Positions 40,269 to 64,000 of a stretch of DNA of 64,000 nucleotides are shown here, in pieces (positions within the stretch are counted from its first letter, which is position 1; each line of letters starts with the position of its first letter). The notes under the pieces were generated by a model. It saw nothing but the letters and a program-made list of their open reading frames with translations, searched no databases and was not told where the DNA came from. The translations under genes were made by a program, and so were the position numbers. Source of the DNA: Dehalococcoidia bacterium (lineage in GTDB: Bacteria; Chloroflexota; Dehalococcoidia; Lucifugimonadales; Australimonadaceae); assembly GCA_965219845.1 (NCBI GenBank), contig CBDCOP010000007.1, positions 335,640 to 399,639 of the forward strand, in the 5' to 3' direction.

Positions 40269-41603
40269 CTACGCCTCCATGAGCTCGAGCCAGAACCGGT
40301 AGAAGTTCCGCTGGTTCACTTCGCTCGGGTTCGGACCCATCTGTCCCGGAACGCCCTGCGGCGCTTCATCCTCGTGGTTCAGCTGCAGCCGGTAGTTGTG
40401 CGGCCGGCGCCAGTTCCGCGGCGCGCGCATCGCTTCCACTATCCGCTCCTGGTTCTCAACGTCGTCCGGAGCGATCGTCCCCGCCATGTGCTGGCCGCGA
40501 TAGGCGTACTCAGCCGCAACCTCCTTGACGATCGCAGGGGCTTCCTTCTCCACCATCGTCCACTGCCACTGCTCCATCTCCGTGACACCGCGGGGGTGGA
40601 ACAGGAGGAATTGGCGGCCTGCCATCGGTGAGAGGAAGCCCATGAGCCCCAGGTTCGGGAAGATAGCGCCGTTCTGGAAACTGTAGGGGGCTATCTCGTA
40701 GTCTTTCATCTGCTCCTGGAACTGCCTGTGGCGGTGCTGCACCCACTCCACGGCTTCCTTGCCCAGTGTTTCGGCCAGCCCCAGGTCGCTCTCATAGGCC
40801 TGCTCGCCTATCGTGACGTTTCCGAAGCCTATCGGGCAACCCTTCAGGTAGCCCGTGGTTGCCTCATACCTCCTATGCCCCCCTGCGGCGGCCCTCCGTA
40901 TCGGATAGCCCTTCTGCGCGAATTCCTGCACTACCTTGAGCCACGACACGTGCGTCGCCGCGATCACGTGGTAGTCGTCGCCGATGAAGTTCTCCGCAAG
41001 GTGCTTCCAGTTGCCCGGCGTACTGTAGCGGTGCCAACCCGGCAGCGCCTCCAGTCCACCGATGTGCTCCACCAGCACGTAGTTCCGCAGCCACCAGCAC
41101 CCATCCTCTCCAAGCCACTCCTCCAACCCCGTCGCAGACTGGTCGAACGTCGCGAAGATCAGGCCCTTGTAGCTCGCAACCCGCGCTTGTTCGAGTCCCC
41201 AGTTCTCGTGGTCGATCTCATCTCGATACAGTTCCTTCTCCATCGGAACGCCGATCAGCTTCCCGCTGATCTCGTACGTCCAGCCGTGGTACGAACACGT
41301 GAACGCCCGTGCATTCCCCCTGTCGAAGAGGCATACCTCGTTCCCTCGGTGCACGCACCTGTTGACCAGGACGTGGAGCTCTCCCTGCATGTCACGGGAT
41401 ACGATGACCGGCACTTCGCCCATGTAATTGGTCACGTAGTCGCCCGGCTTGCGGAGCATGTCCTCGTGACCTACCACCAACCAGGCTTTCTCGAAGACTT
41501 TCGTCTGCTCTTCGCGGTACAGCTCCTCGTCGAAGAGGACGGTGGGCGAGATGAGCCCTTCCCTCCAGTTCACCGCATCGCGCAACTCACTCACACCGAC
41601 CAT
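40269..41603 (-). CDS. Aromatic ring-hydroxylating dioxygenase alpha subunit (copy 1)
   Basis: Rieske motif CVHRGNEVC...CSYHGW plus the catalytic domain. Near-identical N-terminal half to 41642..42982. Confidence 0.9.
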   Translation of the reverse strand: MVGVSELRDAVNWREGLISPTVLFDEELYREEQTKVFEKAWLVVGHEDMLRKPGDYVTNYMGEVPVIVSRDMQGELHVLVNRCVHRGNEVCLFDRGNARAFTCSYHGWTYEISGKLIGVPMEKELYRDEIDHENWGLEQARVASYKGLIFATFDQSATGLEEWLGEDGCWWLRNYVLVEHIGGLEALPGWHRYSTPGNWKHLAENFIGDDYHVIAATHVSWLKVVQEFAQKGYPIRRAAAGGHRRYEATTGYLKGCPIGFGNVTIGEQAYESDLGLAETLGKEAVEWVQHRHRQFQEQMKDYEIAPYSFQNGAIFPNLGLMGFLSPMAGRQFLLFHPRGVTEMEQWQWTMVEKEAPAIVKEVAAEYAYRGQHMAGTIAPDDVENQERIVEAMRAPRNWRRPHNYRLQLNHEDEAPQGVPGQMGPNPSEVNQRNFYRFWLELMEA

Positions 41604-41641
41604 GGCTCTGCCCCTTTCTTCCGGCGCCTTGCGTCCCGGAT

Positions 41642-42982
41642 CTACGCCTCCATGAGTTCGAGCCAGAACCGGTAGAAGTTCCGCTGGTTCACTTCGCTCG
41701 GGTTCGGGCCTACCTGTCCCGGGATGCCCTGCGGCGCCTCTTCCTCGTGGTTCAGCTGCAGCCGGTAGTTGTGCGGCCGACGCCAGTTCCGCGGCGCGCG
41801 CATCGCTTCCACTATCCGCTCCTGGTTCTCGACGTCGTCCGGAGCGATCGTCCCGGCCATGTGCTGGCCGCGGTACACGTACTCAGCGGCCACCTCCTTG
41901 ACGATCGCAGGCGCCTCTTTCTCCACCATCGTCCACTGCCACTGCTCCATCTGTCCGACGCCACGGGGGTGGAACAGGAGGAAGTGCCGGCCTGCCATCG
42001 GTGAGAAGAAGCCCATGAGTCCCAGGTTGGGGAAGATAGCGCCGTTCATGAAGCTATAAGGGGCTATCTCGTAGTCCTTCATCTGCTCCTCGTACTGCCT
42101 GCGGCGGTACTGCACCCATTCCACGGCTTCCTTGCCCAGTGTTTCGGCCATCGCCAGATCGCTCTCATGGACGATCGGGTCCATCGTGACGTTCCCGAAG
42201 CCTATCGGGCAGCCCTTCAGGTAACCGGTCGTTACCTCGTATCTCCGCGTTCGAGCAACCGAGGAGTCGATCCGCCGCAACGGGTAGCCCTTTTCCATGA
42301 ACTCCTGCACTACCTTGAACCACGAAACGTGCGTCGCTGCAAACACGTGGTAGTCGTCGCCGATGAAGTTCTCCGCAAGGTGCTTCCAGTTACCGGGTGT
42401 GCTGTAGCGGTGCCAACCCGGCAACGCCTCCAGTCCACCGATGTGCTCCACCAGCACGTAGTTCCGCAGCCACCAGCATCCGTCCTCCCCAAGCCATTCC
42501 TCCAACCCCAGCGCAGACTGGTCGAACGTCGCGAAGATCAGACCCTTGTAGCTCGCAACCCGGGCTTGTTCGAGTCCCCAGTTCTCGTGGTCGATCTCGT
42601 CTCGATACAGTTCCTTCTCCATCGGAACGCCGATCAGCTTCCCGCTGATCTCGTACGTCCAGCCGTGGTACGAACACGTGAACGCCCGCGCGTTCCCCCT
42701 GTCGAAGAGGCATACTTCGTTCCCTCGGTGCACGCACCTGTTGACCAGGACGTGGAGCTCTCCCTGCATGTCCCGTGACACGATGACCGGCACTTCGCCC
42801 ATGTAGTTGGTCACGTAGTCGCCCGGCTTGCGGAGCATGTCCTCGTGACCCACCACCAACCAGGTTTTCTCGAAGACTTTCGTCTGCTCTTCGCGGTACA
42901 GCTCCTTGTCGAAGAGGACGGTGGGCGAGATAAGCCCTTCCCTCCAGTTGACCACATCGCGCAACTCACTCACGCTGACCAT
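41642..42982 (-). CDS. Aromatic ring-hydroxylating dioxygenase alpha subunit (copy 2, tandem duplicate)
   Basis: Rieske motif CVHRGNEVC...CSYHGW. The two proteins diverge mainly in the segment after HVSW(L/F)KVVQEF. Confidence 0.9.
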   Translation of the reverse strand: MVSVSELRDVVNWREGLISPTVLFDKELYREEQTKVFEKTWLVVGHEDMLRKPGDYVTNYMGEVPVIVSRDMQGELHVLVNRCVHRGNEVCLFDRGNARAFTCSYHGWTYEISGKLIGVPMEKELYRDEIDHENWGLEQARVASYKGLIFATFDQSALGLEEWLGEDGCWWLRNYVLVEHIGGLEALPGWHRYSTPGNWKHLAENFIGDDYHVFAATHVSWFKVVQEFMEKGYPLRRIDSSVARTRRYEVTTGYLKGCPIGFGNVTMDPIVHESDLAMAETLGKEAVEWVQYRRRQYEEQMKDYEIAPYSFMNGAIFPNLGLMGFFSPMAGRHFLLFHPRGVGQMEQWQWTMVEKEAPAIVKEVAAEYVYRGQHMAGTIAPDDVENQERIVEAMRAPRNWRRPHNYRLQLNHEEEAPQGIPGQVGPNPSEVNQRNFYRFWLELMEA

Positions 42983-50929: not shown

Positions 50930-51254
50930 ATCCTCTTTTGCCCCCTCTCCCTACAAGGGGAGAGGGTTGGGGTGAGGGTACTCCGTGGCGGGGCGGCGGG
51001 GACTATCATCCCAAGCGGAGCGCCGCGGAGTAGAGGCATCCTCTTTTGCCCCCTCTCCCTACAAGGGGAGAGGGCTGGGGTGAGGGTACTCCGTGGCGGG
51101 GCGGCGCGGACTATTATCCCCAAGCGGAGCGCCGCGGAGTAGAGGCATCCTCTTTTGCCCCCTCTCCCTACAAGGGGAGAGGGCTGGGGTGAGGGTACTC
51201 CGTGGCGGGGCGGCGCGGACTATCATCCCGAGCGGAGCGCCGCGGAGTAGAGGC
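50930..51254. repeat. Tandem repeat, 3 units of 108-109 bp (plus a degenerate fourth unit to about 51330)
   Basis: Units 50930-51037, 51038-51146 and 51147-51254 are near-identical. Each contains the hairpin CCCTCTCCC-TACAAG-GGGAGAGGG, a G-rich tail (GGGGTGAGGGTACTCC) and the GAGCGCCGCGGAGTAGAGGCATCC module. Confidence 0.95.
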
Positions 51255-52085: not shown

Positions 52086-52387
52086 GTCATTCCGAGCGGA
52101 GCGCAGCGGAGTCGAGGGATCTCTCGGACGCCGCCCTGCGGGCCGGGGGGGTGAGGGTAATCCGGAGTGTGCGGGGCGTCTGGTCCCTTCTCCCTTGAGG
52201 GGAGAAGGCTAGGATGAGGGTGAACCGGCGGGGCCGGGGATGCACGGTGGGAGTTGTCATTCCGAGCGGAGCGCAGCGGAGTCGAGGAATCTCTCGGACG
52301 CCGCCCTGCGGGTCGGAGGGGTGAGGGTAATCCAGAGGGTGCGCGGTTTGGGATGGGAGCGGGCGTTCTGGTCCCCTCTCCCTACAA
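52086..52387. repeat. Tandem composite repeat, period 169 bp (unit 2 interrupted by the element at 52388)
   Basis: GTCATTCCGAGCGGAGCGCAGCGGAGTCGAGG.ATCTCTCGGACGCCGCCCTGCGGG... starts at 52086 and again at 52255. Each unit ends in a CCC(T)TCTCCC hairpin module. Confidence 0.85.
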
Positions 52388-52520
52388 AGGGACCTTTGCA
52401 TAACCGTGAGGGGAGGTGCGGTGCGGGGTCATTTAATCCCTTCCCCCTCGATGGGGGAAGGCTAGGATGGGGGTGAATCGGCGGGGTCTGGGGTGTGCGA
52501 TGGGATTATGCAAGTGTCTC
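52388..52520. mobile_element. MITE-like 133-bp element (copy 1) in a hairpin loop, flanked by TACAA
   Basis: Left end AGGGACCTTTGCATAACC. Right end degenerate (ATTATGCAAGTGTCTC, 13 of 17 TIR positions). TACAA at 52383-52387 and 52521-52525. Outer flanks CCCCTCTCCC / GGGGAGAGGG rebuild the common hairpin module. Confidence 0.6.
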
Positions 52521-52655
52521 TACAAGGGGAGAGGGTGCGCATCGAGATGCGCGGGTGAGGGTACTCCGGGGCCGGGCGTTCTGCTCCCCTCTCCCTCTGG
52601 GAGAGGGGCTGGGGGTGAGGGTTGGGGCGTGGGGGACTTGTGCGCCGACCGCTCC

Positions 52656-56344: not shown

Positions 56345-56513
56345 GCGCAGATTCTATGGGAGCGTCCGCGCCCTTGTCATGGGGCTTGTGGCACAAGCTT
56401 TCCACTCTCCCTACAAGGGGAGGAGGGCGCCGCCCCTGCGGACAAGGCGTAGACGAAAGAGCCGGGGGGCGGTGGGTGAGGGTACTGCGGCCCGGAGGGC
56501 GAGGGTACTGCGG

Positions 56514-56973
56514 CCCCTCCCCGTCGTTCCTGCGGAGGCAGGAACCCGCGCTTTAGCGCGCCGCAGCCCCTGGGTAGGAGGCTACGCTCAACATGACAAA
56601 GCGTAGACGAAAGAGCCGGGGGGCCGGCGTGCGTGTCAGGCGGGCAGCAGCCGCATGGCGGCGACCGTAAGCGACGCGATGAGCGCCAGCCCGCCGAGGC
56701 CCCGCCACATCAGGCGGGCCTCCATCTGAGCGATACGGACTGACAGCTCCTCGTGCTGACGCGCGTTCTCCTCCTTGAAGGAGTCGAACTCCCGGCGGAA
56801 GTCGGAGAAGTAGCGGGGTATCCACTCTCCTTCCGTATTGGGCTGCGGTTCGGTCGTCATGCGCTCATCCGCCTCGGTCGCTGGCAGTATAGCACGTCCG
56901 CACTATAACGGCTGCCACCACTGGCGTATGGCGCCCGCGCATGTCGGTGTAGGACAACCCCCGTCGTTCCTGC
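56514..56973. repeat. Segmental duplication copy A (carries small gene 56636..56860)
   Basis: Colinear with 57637-58080, high identity by eye, with one indel block just downstream of the small gene stop. Confidence 0.85.
56636..56860 (-). CDS. Small tail-anchored membrane protein (copy A)
   Basis: 74 aa: MTTEPQPNTEGEWIPRYFSDFRREFDSFKEENARQHEELSVRIAQMEARL followed by a C-terminal hydrophobic helix. Differences from copy B are few and mostly conservative. Confidence 0.55.
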   Translation of the reverse strand: MTTEPQPNTEGEWIPRYFSDFRREFDSFKEENARQHEELSVRIAQMEARLMWRGLGGLALIASLTVAAMRLLPA

Positions 56974-57478
56974 GGAGGCAGGAACCTCGCAGCCTGCCTG
57001 ATCCCCTCTCCCTACAAGGGGAGAGGGTTAGGGTGAGGGTACTGCGGGGCGGAGGGTGCCGCCCCTGCGGCCGGCGCGTGAGGGTACTGCGGGCGGTGGG
57101 TGAGCGTACTGCGGGCGGTGGGGGCGGGGGTGGGAGGACTGTCATTCCGAGCGAAGCCGAGGAATCTCTCACAAGACGCCCCGCCGTCCTGCGACGCTCT
57201 CCCCGAGAGATGTTTCGGCTACGCTCAACATGACAAGGCGTAGACGAAAGAGCCGGGGGGCGGAGGGTGAGGGTACTGCGGCCCGGAGGGTGAGGGTACT
57301 GCGGCCCCTCCCCGTCGTTCCTGCCTCCGCAGGAACCTCGCAGCCCTGGGGGGGCTTGTCATTCCGAGCGAAGCCGAGGAATCTCTCACAAGACGCCCCG
57401 CCGTCCTGCGACGCTCTCCCCGAGAGATGTTTCGGCTACGCTCAACATGACAAGGCGTAGACGAAAGAGCCGGGCGGC

Positions 57479-57639
57479 GGAGGGTGAGGGTACTGCGGCC
57501 CGGAGGGTGAGGGTACTGCGGCCCGGAGGGCGAGGGTACTGCGGCCCGGAGGGCGAGGGTACTGCGGCCCGGAGGGCGAGGGTACTGTGGCCCGGAGGGC
57601 GAGGGTACTGTGGCCCGGAGGGCGAGGGTACTGCGGCCC
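57479..57639. repeat. 23-bp G-rich tandem repeat, 7 units
   Basis: GGAGGG(T/C)GAGGGTACTG(C/T)GGCCC x7. Only 2 units are present at the paralogous positions 56474-56519 and 57262-57307. Confidence 0.95.
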
Positions 57640-58080
57640 CTCCCCGTCGTTCCTGCGGAGGCAGGAACCCGCGCTTTAGCGCGCCGCAGCCCCTGGGTAG
57701 GAGGCTACGCTCAACATGACGAACGCGCGTCGCCCCGCGTGTCAGGCAGGCAGCAGCCGCATTGCGGCGACCGTAAGCGACGCGATGAGCGCCAGCCCGC
57801 CGAGACCCCGCCACATCAGGCGCGCCTCCATCTGAGCGATGCGGCCGGACAGCTCCGCATGCTGACGCGCGTTCTCCCCCTTGAAGGAGTCGAACTCCCG
57901 GCGGAAGTCGGAGAAGTAGCGGGGTATCCACTCGCCCTCCGTATTGGCCTGCGGTTCGGTCGTCATGCGCTCATCCACTTCGGTCGCTGGCAGTATAGCC
58001 GTCAGCACTATACCTGTTGCCACCGATAGCGCATGCGCCCGCGCGTGTCTCGGCGTGGGACGCCCCTCGTCGTTCCTGCG
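57637..58080. repeat. Segmental duplication copy B (carries small gene 57742..57966)
   Basis: Colinear with 56514-56973. Confidence 0.85.
57742..57966 (-). CDS. Small tail-anchored membrane protein (copy B)
   Basis: 74 aa from the ATG at 57966, near-identical to copy A (MTTEPQANTEGEWIPRYFSDFRREFDSFKGENARQHAELSGRIAQMEARL...). Confidence 0.55.
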   Translation of the reverse strand: MTTEPQANTEGEWIPRYFSDFRREFDSFKGENARQHAELSGRIAQMEARLMWRGLGGLALIASLTVAAMRLLPA

Positions 58081-58248
58081 CCTTACTTGTCATTCCGAGC
58101 GAAGCCGAGGAATCTCTCAGGAGACGCCCCGTCGCGCACCAACGTTCTCCCCGAGAGATGTTTCGACTCCGCTCAACATAACAAAGAGCCCCCGTCGTTC
58201 CTGCGAAGGCAGGAACCTCGCAGCCTGCCTGGTCCCCTCTCCCTACAA

Positions 58249-58380
58249 AGGGACCTTTGCATAACCGTGAGAGGGGATGTGGGGCGGGGTTATTTGATCC
58301 CTTCCCCCTCGATGGGGGAAGGTTAGGATGGGGGTGATTCGCGGGGTTTGGGGTGTGCGATGGGGTTACGCAAAGGTCCC
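58249..58380. mobile_element. MITE-like 132-bp element (copy 2, best preserved) in a hairpin loop, flanked by TACAA
   Basis: Ends GGGACCTTTGCATAACC / GGTTACGCAAAGGTCCC (16 of 17 inverted). TACAA at 58244-58248 and 58381-58385. Internal hairpin CCTTCCCCC-TCGAT-GGGGGAAGG. Flanks equal the uninterrupted modules at 56403-56440 and 56985-57030. Confidence 0.7.
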
Positions 58381-58695
58381 TACAAGGGGAGGAGGGCGCC
58401 GCCCCTGCGGGCCGGCGGGTGAGGGTACTGCGGAGGCGGGGCGTGGGGGTGCTGTGGGAGCGAGGAAAGAGCCCCCCGTCGTCCCTGTCCTTACTTGTCA
58501 TTCCGAGCGCAGCCGAGGAATCTCTCGGGAGACGCCCCGTCGCGCACCAACGTCCGGCCCGCGCGCCCCTGGGCGGGACGCCCCCCCCCAAAGCAAGAGC
58601 CCCCGCCGTATGGCGGGGGCTCTTCCACGTAACCTTGCTTGCCTCCCCTCCCCCTCTGGGAGAGGGGCACGCGCTTCAGCGCGCGGTGAGGGTCC

Positions 58696-62367: not shown

Positions 62368-62769
62368 TTCTACCCCCCTTATGGAGCTGTAGTCTTGGGT
62401 TTGGCGCTCTCTCCGAGAGCAGGGTGGTCCGTTATTCCTCTGTACCTGCGCGTGCGGCGCTCCGCTTCATGTCCGATGCACAGCATGGCAGGGATGCTAT
62501 TGTCCAACGACAGCCGCCGCCCTTGCAATAGGATGCACGGGGCAGTTCTGGCCAAACCGCTCGTTATGTCTCTGCGTCAACACGCAACGCTCTTTCTACC
62601 AGCGTCACGCCCGCCTGTCAATGCAGAGGATGCGGTACACGCACAAGGATGCACAGGATGCACAGAATGGAGGCCCCCCGTCGTTCCTGCGAAGGCAGGA
62701 ACCTCGCGCTTTAGCGCGCCGCAGCCCCTATTGGGAAGGCGAGCCCGGCCCGATCCCCTCTCCCTACAA

Positions 62770-62900
62770 GGGGACCCTTGCACAATGTGGACGGACACCG
62801 GATAGCGGGGGGGGGGGGGTATTATCCCCTCTCCCTTGAGGGGAGAGGGTTAGGGTGAGGGTGAACCGGTGGGGCTGGGGCAGGGTTATGCAAAGGTCTC
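62770..62900. mobile_element. MITE-like 131-bp element (copy 3, divergent) in a hairpin loop, flanked by TACAA
   Basis: Ends GGGACCCTTGCACAATG / GGTTATGCAAAGGTCTC (12 of 17). TACAA at 62765-62769 and 62901-62905. The internal hairpin is CCCTCTCCC-TTGAG-GGGAGAGGG. Contains a G13 run (62807-62819). Confidence 0.55.
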
Positions 62901-63247
62901 TACAAGGGGTGAGGGTGAGGGTACTGTGGGCCGGGGCGTGGGGGTGTTGCGGGAGCGGGGGAGGACCTCGTCGTTCCTGCGCACCTTACTTGTCATTCCG
63001 AGCGCAGCCGAGGAATCTCTCAGGAGACGCCCCGTCGCGTACTAACGTTCCCTCATAAAGACAGAGACCGCCACGAGGGCGGTCTCGACCCTACCGGCGA
63101 AGCGATAGGGGTGGTAACACAAATGTACACGCCTACGGCACGCGTGGCAACCGCGCCGCGCTTCCTGACCCTCTCTCCCTCTGGGAGAGGGTGCCACGGC
63201 AGTGGCAGGTGAGGGTGGGCGCGACAGCGCCCCTTCCGTCATTCCAG

Positions 63248-63302
63248 CCCACACCCGTCATTCCAGCGAAGGCTGGAATCCAGGTGGCCGGCAGGCCACG
63301 CG
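63248..63302. repeat. Left copy of a perfect 55-bp direct repeat flanking the GIY-YIG gene
   Basis: CCCACACCCGTCATTCCAGCGAAGGCTGGAATCCAGGTGGCCGGCAGGCCACGCG, identical to 63946-64000. Contains hairpins ATTCCAGC-GAAG-GCTGGAAT and GTGGCC-GGCA-GGCCAC. Confidence 0.95.
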
Positions 63303-63831: not shown

Positions 63832-63964
63832 CCCACACCCGTCATTCCAGCCCACACCCGTCATTCCAGCCCACACCCGTCATTCCAGCCCACACCCGTC
63901 ATTCCAGCCCACACCCGTCATTCCAGCCCACACCCGTCATTCCAGCCCACACCCGTCATTCCAG
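63832..63964. repeat. 19-bp tandem repeat, 7 units
   Basis: CCCACACCCGTCATTCCAG x7 exactly, running into the right 55-bp direct repeat. The left locus (63238-63266) has only about 1.5 units. Confidence 0.97.
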
Positions 63965-64000
63965 CGAAGGCTGGAATCCAGGTGGCCGGCAGGCCACGCG
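63946..64000. repeat. Right copy of the perfect 55-bp direct repeat (truncated by the window end)
   Basis: Identical to 63248-63302. Confidence 0.95.

Follow-up and report, generated by a model that had tools for sequence, protein, structure and literature searches.

We examined a short element in a 64-kb stretch of DNA from a Dehalococcoidia bacterium (contig CBDCOP010000007.1). This whole stretch is called the window, coordinates are positions in it, and labels such as L004 or L044 denote loci in other genomes. The element is a putative MITE, or miniature transposon with inverted repeats, of 131 bp at 58250-58380, with 17-bp inverted ends around a non-coding interior of 97 nt, and it lies inside a split palindromic repeat at 58234-58396. 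The left end (GGGACCTTTGCATAACC, 58250-58266, plus strand) and the right end (GGTTACGCAAAGGTCCC, 58364-58380, minus strand) were complementary at 16 of 17 positions, the reverse complement of the right end having one mismatch to the left end. Outside the element are the two complementary arms of the target hairpin, CCCCTCTCCC on the 5' side (58234-58243), which recurs in uninterrupted hairpins, and GGGGAGGAGGG on the 3' side (58386-58396). TACAA was present between arm and element on both the left (58244-58248) and the right (58381-58385), with a single extra A (58249) between the left TACAA and the element end. The interior contained a hairpin, CCTTCCCCC-TCGAT-GGGGGAAGG followed by TTAGGATGGGGGTGA (58300-58322), which is a variant of the target-type module.

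An earlier note on this DNA had described an element with inverted ends matching at 16 of 17 positions and splitting the CCCCTCTCCC/GGGGAGGAGGG hairpin, and direct reading bore this out, with the length at 131 bp. The note had also described a TACAA direct repeat, which was present on both sides as claimed but was not a clean 5-bp repeat. In the best register the direct repeat spans 5 bp and is shifted by 1 nt on the left side, and TCCCTACAA, then A or G, then GGGA recurred across 14 nt, an apparent repeat that arises because the element ends (GGGA.../...TCCC) look like the inner stem. The end motif, allowing up to 3 mismatches, occurred four times in the window compared with 0.04 occurrences expected from shuffles. 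Its length of 131 bp and its lack of a transposase gene give the element the size and coding character of a MITE.

The hairpin rebuilt from the filled site was the same as the intact hairpins found elsewhere in the window. Uninterrupted hairpins were counted six times in the window (0 expected by chance), and the form CCCTCTCCC-TACAAG-GGGAGAGGG was present at four sites. Three of these (50943-50966, 51051-51074, and 51160-51183) lie inside a tandem unit of ~108 bp, and the fourth (57004-57027) is an empty paralogous site recovered from the alignment of duplicated segments (repeat families D9 and D20). A fifth, imperfect hairpin (56403-56426) agreed on its 3' side, without a difference, with the filled site's right flank. 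The uninterrupted copies of the earlier note were therefore recovered, with their positions shifted by 1-3 nt. The window contained 14 intact hairpins with an all-pyrimidine 5' arm, and its commonest hairpin type was TACAA(G).

Both flanks of the filled site matched empty paralogous sites, as had been proposed. The left flank (58189-58253) showed a 95% match to 56958-57022 across 65 nt, and the right flank (58381-58410; TACAAGGGGAGGAGGGCGCCGCCCCTGCGG, which comprises TACAA, the arm and the next 14 nt) was identical to 56411-56440. On alignment, the segment at ~56630-57200, in which the hairpin is intact, was paralogous to that at ~57737-58560, in which it is split, and both flanks matched. The two segments form a paralogous empty/filled pair.

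We identified full-length insertion sequences (ISs) with the same ends in other genomes. The end sequence GAGACCTTTGCATAAC(C/T) bounds ISs of 1.20-1.23 kb that carry an IS5-family DDE transposase, mostly in uncultured Chloroflexota. The left end of the window element differed at one position from GAGACCTTTGCATAACC, which bounds the IS5-family elements in L044, L004, L116, and L119-L139. The element in L044 (6350-7564, 1215 bp) had the ends GAGACCTTTGCATAACT...AGTTATGCAAAGGTCTC with CAGAA on either side, and was located inside GCCCTCTCC/GGAGAGGC (hairpin CCCTCTCC/GGAGAGG). Its transposase gene was split by one frameshift, and the two frames scored 193.9 and 84.6 bits against NCBIfam NF033581 'IS5 family transposase' (cut-off 140). 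Against Pfam, they scored 97.4 bits for DUF772 and 40.7 and 52.2 bits for DDE_Tnp_1, a family for which we take Transposase_11 to be the older name. Intact transposase genes of 325-364 aa were present in L037 (325 aa), L004, and L116, the range for the partner elements overall being 324-364 aa, and the proteins of these three loci were 60-63% identical to that of L044 while the ends were unchanged. The full-length element with the same ends and a transposase, which the earlier note had suggested searching for, was thus found in other genomes (L044, L037, L004, L116, and L119-L139) and not in the window. Only one of the four long end pairs in loci selected by the end pattern was real (L044 6350-7564); the other three were unrelated ends sharing CAGAG.

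To avoid selection by the ends, we sampled full-length copies by protein, using the L037 protein as query, which returned at least 1690 relatives at E <= 1e-40. DNA was taken around P0191, P0128, and P0123 (61-79% identical to the L037 protein), giving 21 copies. The end sequence was present on all 21 copies. Most were 1200-1231 bp long (three were 1269-1398 bp), with 17-bp ends and a single gene. Nineteen of the 21 lay between complementary arms forming a perfect stem of at least 6 bp (7-15 bp), compared with 6% of random split points, and 12 had perfect direct repeats of 5-6 bp.

The full-length element of L134 is inserted in the target found in the window: the arrangement ATCCCCTCTCCC-TACAAG / IS / TACAAG-GGGAGAGGGTTAGGGTGAGGGTACTGCGG reproduces the hairpin, loop and downstream module of window positions 57004-57045. 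Contigs bearing the L134-type element also held the TGTCATTCCGAGCG... module of the window, and hence come from a related lineage. The 1201-bp element of L129-L134 is, on sequence comparison, the best candidate for the partner of the window MITE. Thousands of IS5-type copies on plasmids matched at <60% identity. A Rhizobium plasmid carried an IS5-family element whose transposase was 45% identical to that of L037 and which lay in the hairpin CACTTCTCCCC-GAC / IS / GAC-GGGGAGAAGTG. Because this distant relative is also inside a hairpin, the habit of landing in hairpins may be old in this IS5 branch. Different assemblies of the same IS locus had different left pentamers, in L121 and L125 (CAGTG vs CAGAG) and in L122 and L126/L128 (CACTG vs CAGAG), which suggests that copies have recently recombined or undergone conversion within populations. 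We also considered whether the hairpin arms mimic abutted element ends (GGTCTC-N5-GAGACC vs CCTCTCC-N5-GGAGAGG). We did not rely on this idea because a second target family, GTCATTCCCGC/GCGGGAATGAC, does not fit it.

Short elements with the same ends were sought by scanning one genome per species (596 Gb) for GRGACCTTTGCRTAACC, which gave at least 117 loci. Among the loci listed, 84 were in Chloroflexota or Dehalococcoidia metagenome-assembled genomes, and the remainder included Nitrospina, Desulfatiglandales, Hyphomicrobiales, and one contig binned as Thermoplasmata. We estimate from a uniform-composition model that ~280 matches would be expected by chance in 596 Gb, so single unpaired matches outside Chloroflexota may be due to chance. 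However, the degenerate second position was A rather than G in 133 of the 136 matches listed, where chance would give about half; the matches overall are therefore not chance. At least 71 non-redundant pairs of inverted ends lay within 450 bp of each other, mostly spanning 121-142 bp with clusters at 121-122 and 142 bp. Paired ends with duplications also occurred in Nitrospina, Desulfatiglandales, Hyphomicrobiales, and the contig binned as Thermoplasmata. The element interiors were wholly different between subfamilies while the ends were kept. A metagenome scan with a 22-mer of the window's subfamily gave no match, and an 18-mer was present in 13 contigs, accompanied in some of them by a partner end and by incomplete direct repeats. 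Among these contigs, the base preceding GGGACC was variable.

Among the matches listed, the flanking direct repeats were 5 bp in 15 cases and 6 bp in 16, and their sequences varied (GCTGT, TGATT, ACTAT, TAATC, CAGAA, CTCTG, TTCTG, CGAAAG, and others). Since the same ends are flanked by varied direct repeats elsewhere, the TACAA pair is a target duplication and not part of the element, in agreement with the earlier proposal of an insertion with target-site duplication. The 5-bp repeats differed from one another at the first as well as the last position, and we therefore rejected the alternative of a duplication that is always 4 bp next to an end longer by one base. Direct repeats of at least 4 bp flanked 42 of the elements listed (40 short elements and two full-length ISs, L004 and L044). 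A perfect stem of at least 5 bp was centred on the repeat in 62% of these 42, compared with 5.5% of random positions in the same loci, and a stem of at least 6 bp in 57%, compared with 1.9%. The loop preference was thus strong for both the short and the full-length forms. The target hairpins belonged to two unrelated families, CCYTCTCC(C)-loop-(G)GGAGARGG and GTCATTCCCGC-GAAA-GCGGGAATGAC, and the insertion sites in A+T-rich Desulfatiglandales loci were not hairpins. In L037 (2242-2551), an 84-bp repeat from the left part of a 142-bp MITE occurred three times in tandem, ahead of a single right end. Each repeat included TTCTG and the arm of the hairpin on the left, so that element and target have been partially amplified in tandem.

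These results bear on two readings that involve no insertion. The region is dense with low-complexity G-rich repeats, and an inverted repeat could arise by chance in such G+C-rich DNA. This reading is refuted by the fourfold occurrence of the end motif against 0.04 expected, the presence of the same 17-mer at element ends in >100 loci of other genomes among the matches listed, the bias to A at the second position, the paired ends, and the ends on full-length copies, and we give it next to no credence. The second reading takes the 160-nt nested palindrome as a functional structure under selection, for example a terminator, a structured RNA, or a site bound by a protein. The palindrome is intergenic and folds as a long hairpin (58230-58400 as single-stranded DNA, -32.8 kcal/mol, z = -2.57), and hairpin modules of this kind are conserved across several Chloroflexota genomes, the interior module of the window MITE showing 85-98% identity across ~40-50 nt with copies in other Chloroflexota loci, which is unusually high for intergenic repeats. 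However, the z-score of the fold is modest, no Rfam family was matched anywhere in the window at gathering thresholds (nor were tRNA or tmRNA genes found there), and the ends match those of transposase-carrying elements at 1-2 mismatches. Direct repeats also differed from copy to copy in other genomes, and interiors changed completely between subfamilies with the ends kept. We consider a selected structure very improbable.

The observation of the earlier note was thus confirmed, and the results support its reading that a transposon has inserted here. At 58250-58380 lies what is very probably a non-autonomous MITE that shares its ends with IS5-family ISs and landed in the loop of a palindromic repeat. 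Compared by sequence, the window ends match a 1.2-kb IS5-family clade (~325-aa DDE transposase) at 1-2 mismatches. The ISs of this clade and their short derivatives prefer the centres of short G+C-rich palindromic intergenic repeats, and after insertion each side retains one half of the hairpin and a copy of the loop. The TACAA pair in the window is the duplicated loop of a CCCCTCTCCC-TACAA(G)-GGGGAGAGGG repeat. As to mechanism, the transposase would have come in trans from an element resembling that of 1201 bp in L129-L134 and would have bound both ends of the MITE, the target would have been cut across the loop with a stagger of 5-6 nt, and gap repair would then have duplicated the loop.

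Several findings weigh against this interpretation. No homolog of the partner transposase was detected by tblastn in the 64-kb window, where the earlier note had also seen no transposase. Matching direct repeats were absent in 24 of the 71 short pairs among the matches listed and in 9 of the 21 full-length copies, which had hybrid or inverted flanks; we attribute these non-matching flanks to recombination between copies. For the neighbouring 1223-aa gene, the best ortholog reached only 68% identity, and no orthologous empty/filled difference was seen. Two of the three copies in the window had one decayed end and the closest pair was ~10% apart; the window element may be dead.

The two other filled copies that had been reported in the window were both recovered, each with one degenerate end. 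The second filled site (52373-52535) comprises an arm (52373-52382), TACAA (52383-52387), an extra A (52388), the MITE (52389-52520, right end degenerate), TACAA (52521-52525), and an arm (52526-52535). The third (62755-62915) comprises an arm (62755-62764), TACAA (62765-62769), an extra G (62770), the MITE (62771-62900), TACAA (62901-62905), and an arm (62906-62915). The left end of this third MITE was degenerate (4 mismatches to GGGACCTTTGCATAACC), and its interior was unlike that of the 58250 copy and held the hairpin CCCTCTCCC-TTGAG-GGGAGAGGG. All three filled sites were intergenic and flanked by TACAA.

This sharing of one hairpin type by all three copies raises the question of their independence, which also counts against three separate landings. 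An ancestral composite of hairpin and element, itself of MITE origin, might have been duplicated, converted, or moved with the hairpin module. The odd extra A is common to the 52389 and 58250 copies, as is an identical left flank of 21 nt (CTGGTCCCCTCTCCCTACAAA, including CTGG), and despite this identical flank the 58250 element was only 89.6% identical to the copy at 52389-52513. At 58232 the filled site has G, as does the 52-kb copy, whereas its own paralog has A (57001), and the intergenic DNA from ~50.9 kb onward is a mosaic of short, repeated and duplicated modules. On the other hand, the flanks of the three copies were unrelated beyond the hairpin, those of the 58-kb copy matched the two empty sites at 56958-57022 and 56411-56440, and the 62-kb copy had a different interior and G instead of A. 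Independent hits in the same loop would also be expected, because the TACAA(G) hairpin is the commonest in the window and is exactly the target used by the full-length element of L134. We therefore regard a common composite as improbable, though less so than a selected structure. The extra A (58249 and 52388) may be the first base of the element. Alternatively, both copies may have inherited a 6-bp TACAAG duplication in which G had changed to A, in which case the copies at 52389 and 58250 would have been copied along with the hairpin.

A further idea is that the IS5-family clade recognises a short palindrome by its geometry, as an extruded hairpin or cruciform, rather than by any one sequence. 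The use of two unrelated hairpin families (CCYTCTCCC/GGGAGARGG and GTCATTCCCGC/GCGGGAATGAC) and the presence of the Rhizobium relative in a hairpin point to geometry, and we put this forward tentatively, as a possibility that we think rather unlikely. If true, every insertion would plant a new landing pad, as MITE interiors carry a fresh hairpin. This would drive nested, self-amplifying repeat mosaics in the intergenic DNA of uncultured Chloroflexota, and could aid spread across phyla.

The earlier note had found the preference for a hairpin loop unfamiliar; however, IS1397, ISKpn1, and ISRm22 do likewise (PMC1525189, PMC3184786). In genome surveys, ISs that land in palindromic extragenic repeats include ISRm22, ISPa11, ISPpu9, ISPpu10, and others from five families, IS5 among them (PMC1525189, PMC3184786). 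The closest behavioural parallel is ISRm22 of Sinorhizobium meliloti 1021, every copy of which lies in a palindromic intergenic repeat, at the axis, with 6-bp repeats; a third of the copies have non-matching repeats, which Tobes and Pareja 2006 attribute to recombination between copies (PMC1525189). Its transposase bears Pfam Transposase_11, and the element is filed under IS4 (PMC1525189). The window element and its partners share with ISRm22 the insertion at a palindrome axis, short direct repeats, and non-matching flanks in some copies. In contrast, ISRm22 is a full-length alphaproteobacterial element with no MITE derivatives described, whereas the window element is a non-autonomous 131-bp element in a Chloroflexota-like genome. 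When plasmids were searched by tblastn with the Rhizobium relative as query (E <= 1e-60), no record from Sinorhizobium was matched, which gave no evidence of close kinship with ISRm22. The 'type 1 association' of Tobes and Pareja 2006, in which an element is flanked by the halves of a broken repeat, was found for 19 of the 21 protein-selected copies and 62% of the 42 elements with direct repeats.

IS1397 and ISKpn1 (IS3 family) insert in the palindromic units of enterobacterial bacterial interspersed mosaic elements (BIMEs), and experiments indicate that the transposase itself sets the specificity (PMC1525189, PMC3184786). They are likewise specific for a repeated extragenic palindrome but differ from the present clade in family, the IS3 type having two frames and a frameshift. 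Their ends are TG...CA and their duplications 3-4 bp, and we know of no abundant MITE derivatives of either. With Escherichia coli IS5 and the IS5 group, the partner clade shares a size of ~1.2 kb, a single gene, and inverted ends of ~16-17 bp, and its score above the NF033581 cut-off agrees with membership of the IS5 family, as do its size, single gene, and short inverted ends. IS5 duplicates 4 bp at YTAR sites, and its ends start with GGAAGG. The partner clade differs in its ends (GAGACCTTTGCATAACC), its 5-6-bp duplications, and its preference for palindrome centres. The difference between 5-6 and 4 bp is one within the family and is no ground for excluding the clade from it.

MITEs paired with a full-length element are exemplified by Nezha, with ISNpu3 (PMC3184786), and by MITEAba12 (PMC6382973). 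Like the window element, these are short and non-coding, with the inverted ends of the partner, direct repeats, many copies, and a long hairpin fold. Unlike it, they are not reported in the loops of other palindromic repeats, and the window element differs further in an interior composed of host hairpin modules. The target hairpins themselves resemble repetitive extragenic palindromic (REP) sequences in being short, G+C-rich, extragenic, palindromic, clustered, and multicopy (PMC2817692, PMC3116915). REP and REP doublet (REPIN) elements are mobilised by REP-associated tyrosine transposases (RAYTs; Y1 transposases) without target duplications (PMC2817692, PMC3116915). In contrast, the inverted ends of the inserted element are of the DDE type and are shared with an IS5-family element, and target duplications accompany them, which does not fit a REPIN/RAYT element. 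Literature searches gave no match for the end sequence and nothing relevant on MITEs in sponge or Chloroflexi genomes.

The element thus belongs to a known kind, that of an IS5-family MITE in the loop of a palindromic repeat. IS targeting of palindromic repeats has been known since the 1990s, and the general picture is therefore unchanged. Of modest interest are the size and spread of the clade, its sharp choice of target, the occurrence of target-type hairpins in MITE interiors, and the fact that the 17-bp ends are conserved although the transposases share only ~60% identity. The element accounts for part of the dense intergenic repeat mosaic in a poorly studied, mostly uncultured bacterial group, and offers a signature for annotation (GAGACCTTTGCRTAACC ends with 5-6-bp duplications within hairpin loops). 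A large unnamed clade of IS5-family transposases is hereby tied to a sharply defined target, the centres of short palindromes, so that recognition of sequence or of hairpin shape could be told apart in a small, well-defined system.

The MITE interior resembles a repeat module captured from the host; it does not appear to derive from the IS and would itself be a hairpin module of the landing-target type. A free-standing interior module at 52173-52252 was 79% identical to 52426-52505 (80 nt), with no inverted ends around it. Hairpin modules of the form CCCTTCCCCC-TYGAT-GGGGGAAGG-TTAGGATGGGGGTGA, with a CCCTCTCCC variant, were present at 58296-58335 and 62824-62865, and also in L091, L063, L062, L052, and L004. 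Elsewhere, hairpins run into GGGAGAGGG-TTA-GGG-TGA-GGG with four consecutive G-runs, the classic pattern of a four-stranded G structure.

Other repeats were observed in the same part of the window. The paralogous segments include a 263-nt duplication (56631-56893 and 57737-57999, 94% identity) over a small minus-strand reading frame (90 and 93 aa), around which the modules differ through insertions and deletions of whole modules. A repeat of ~100 nt that extends from TGTCATTCCGAGCGAAGCCGAGGAATCTCTC to GCTCAACATGACA and has inverted ends of imperfect match (TGTCATTCCGAGCG / CGCTCAACATGACA) was found at 57138-57236, 57355-57453, 58086-58184, 58494-58566, and 62989-63061. It may be a second small mobile element, because the 57.7-58.6-kb paralog has one copy and the 56.6-57.2-kb paralog has none. 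A 23-bp tandem unit (CGGAGGGYGAGGGTACTGCGGCC) was present in ~8 copies at 57455-57660, and also at 56470-56515 and 57261-57306. A 19-bp tandem repeat (CCGTCATTCCAGCCCACAC, ~6 copies, 63236-63302 and 63839-64000) closes in a GTCATTCCAGCGAAGGCTGGAATCC hairpin, which is related to the GTCATTCCCGC-GAAA-GCGGGAATGAC family targeted by the same MITE family in other genomes. Further upstream, 40269-42571 contained two consecutive units of ~1.37 kb (families D4 and D5), which were 91-94% identical over two compared stretches of 300 nt and probably represent a tandem gene duplication.

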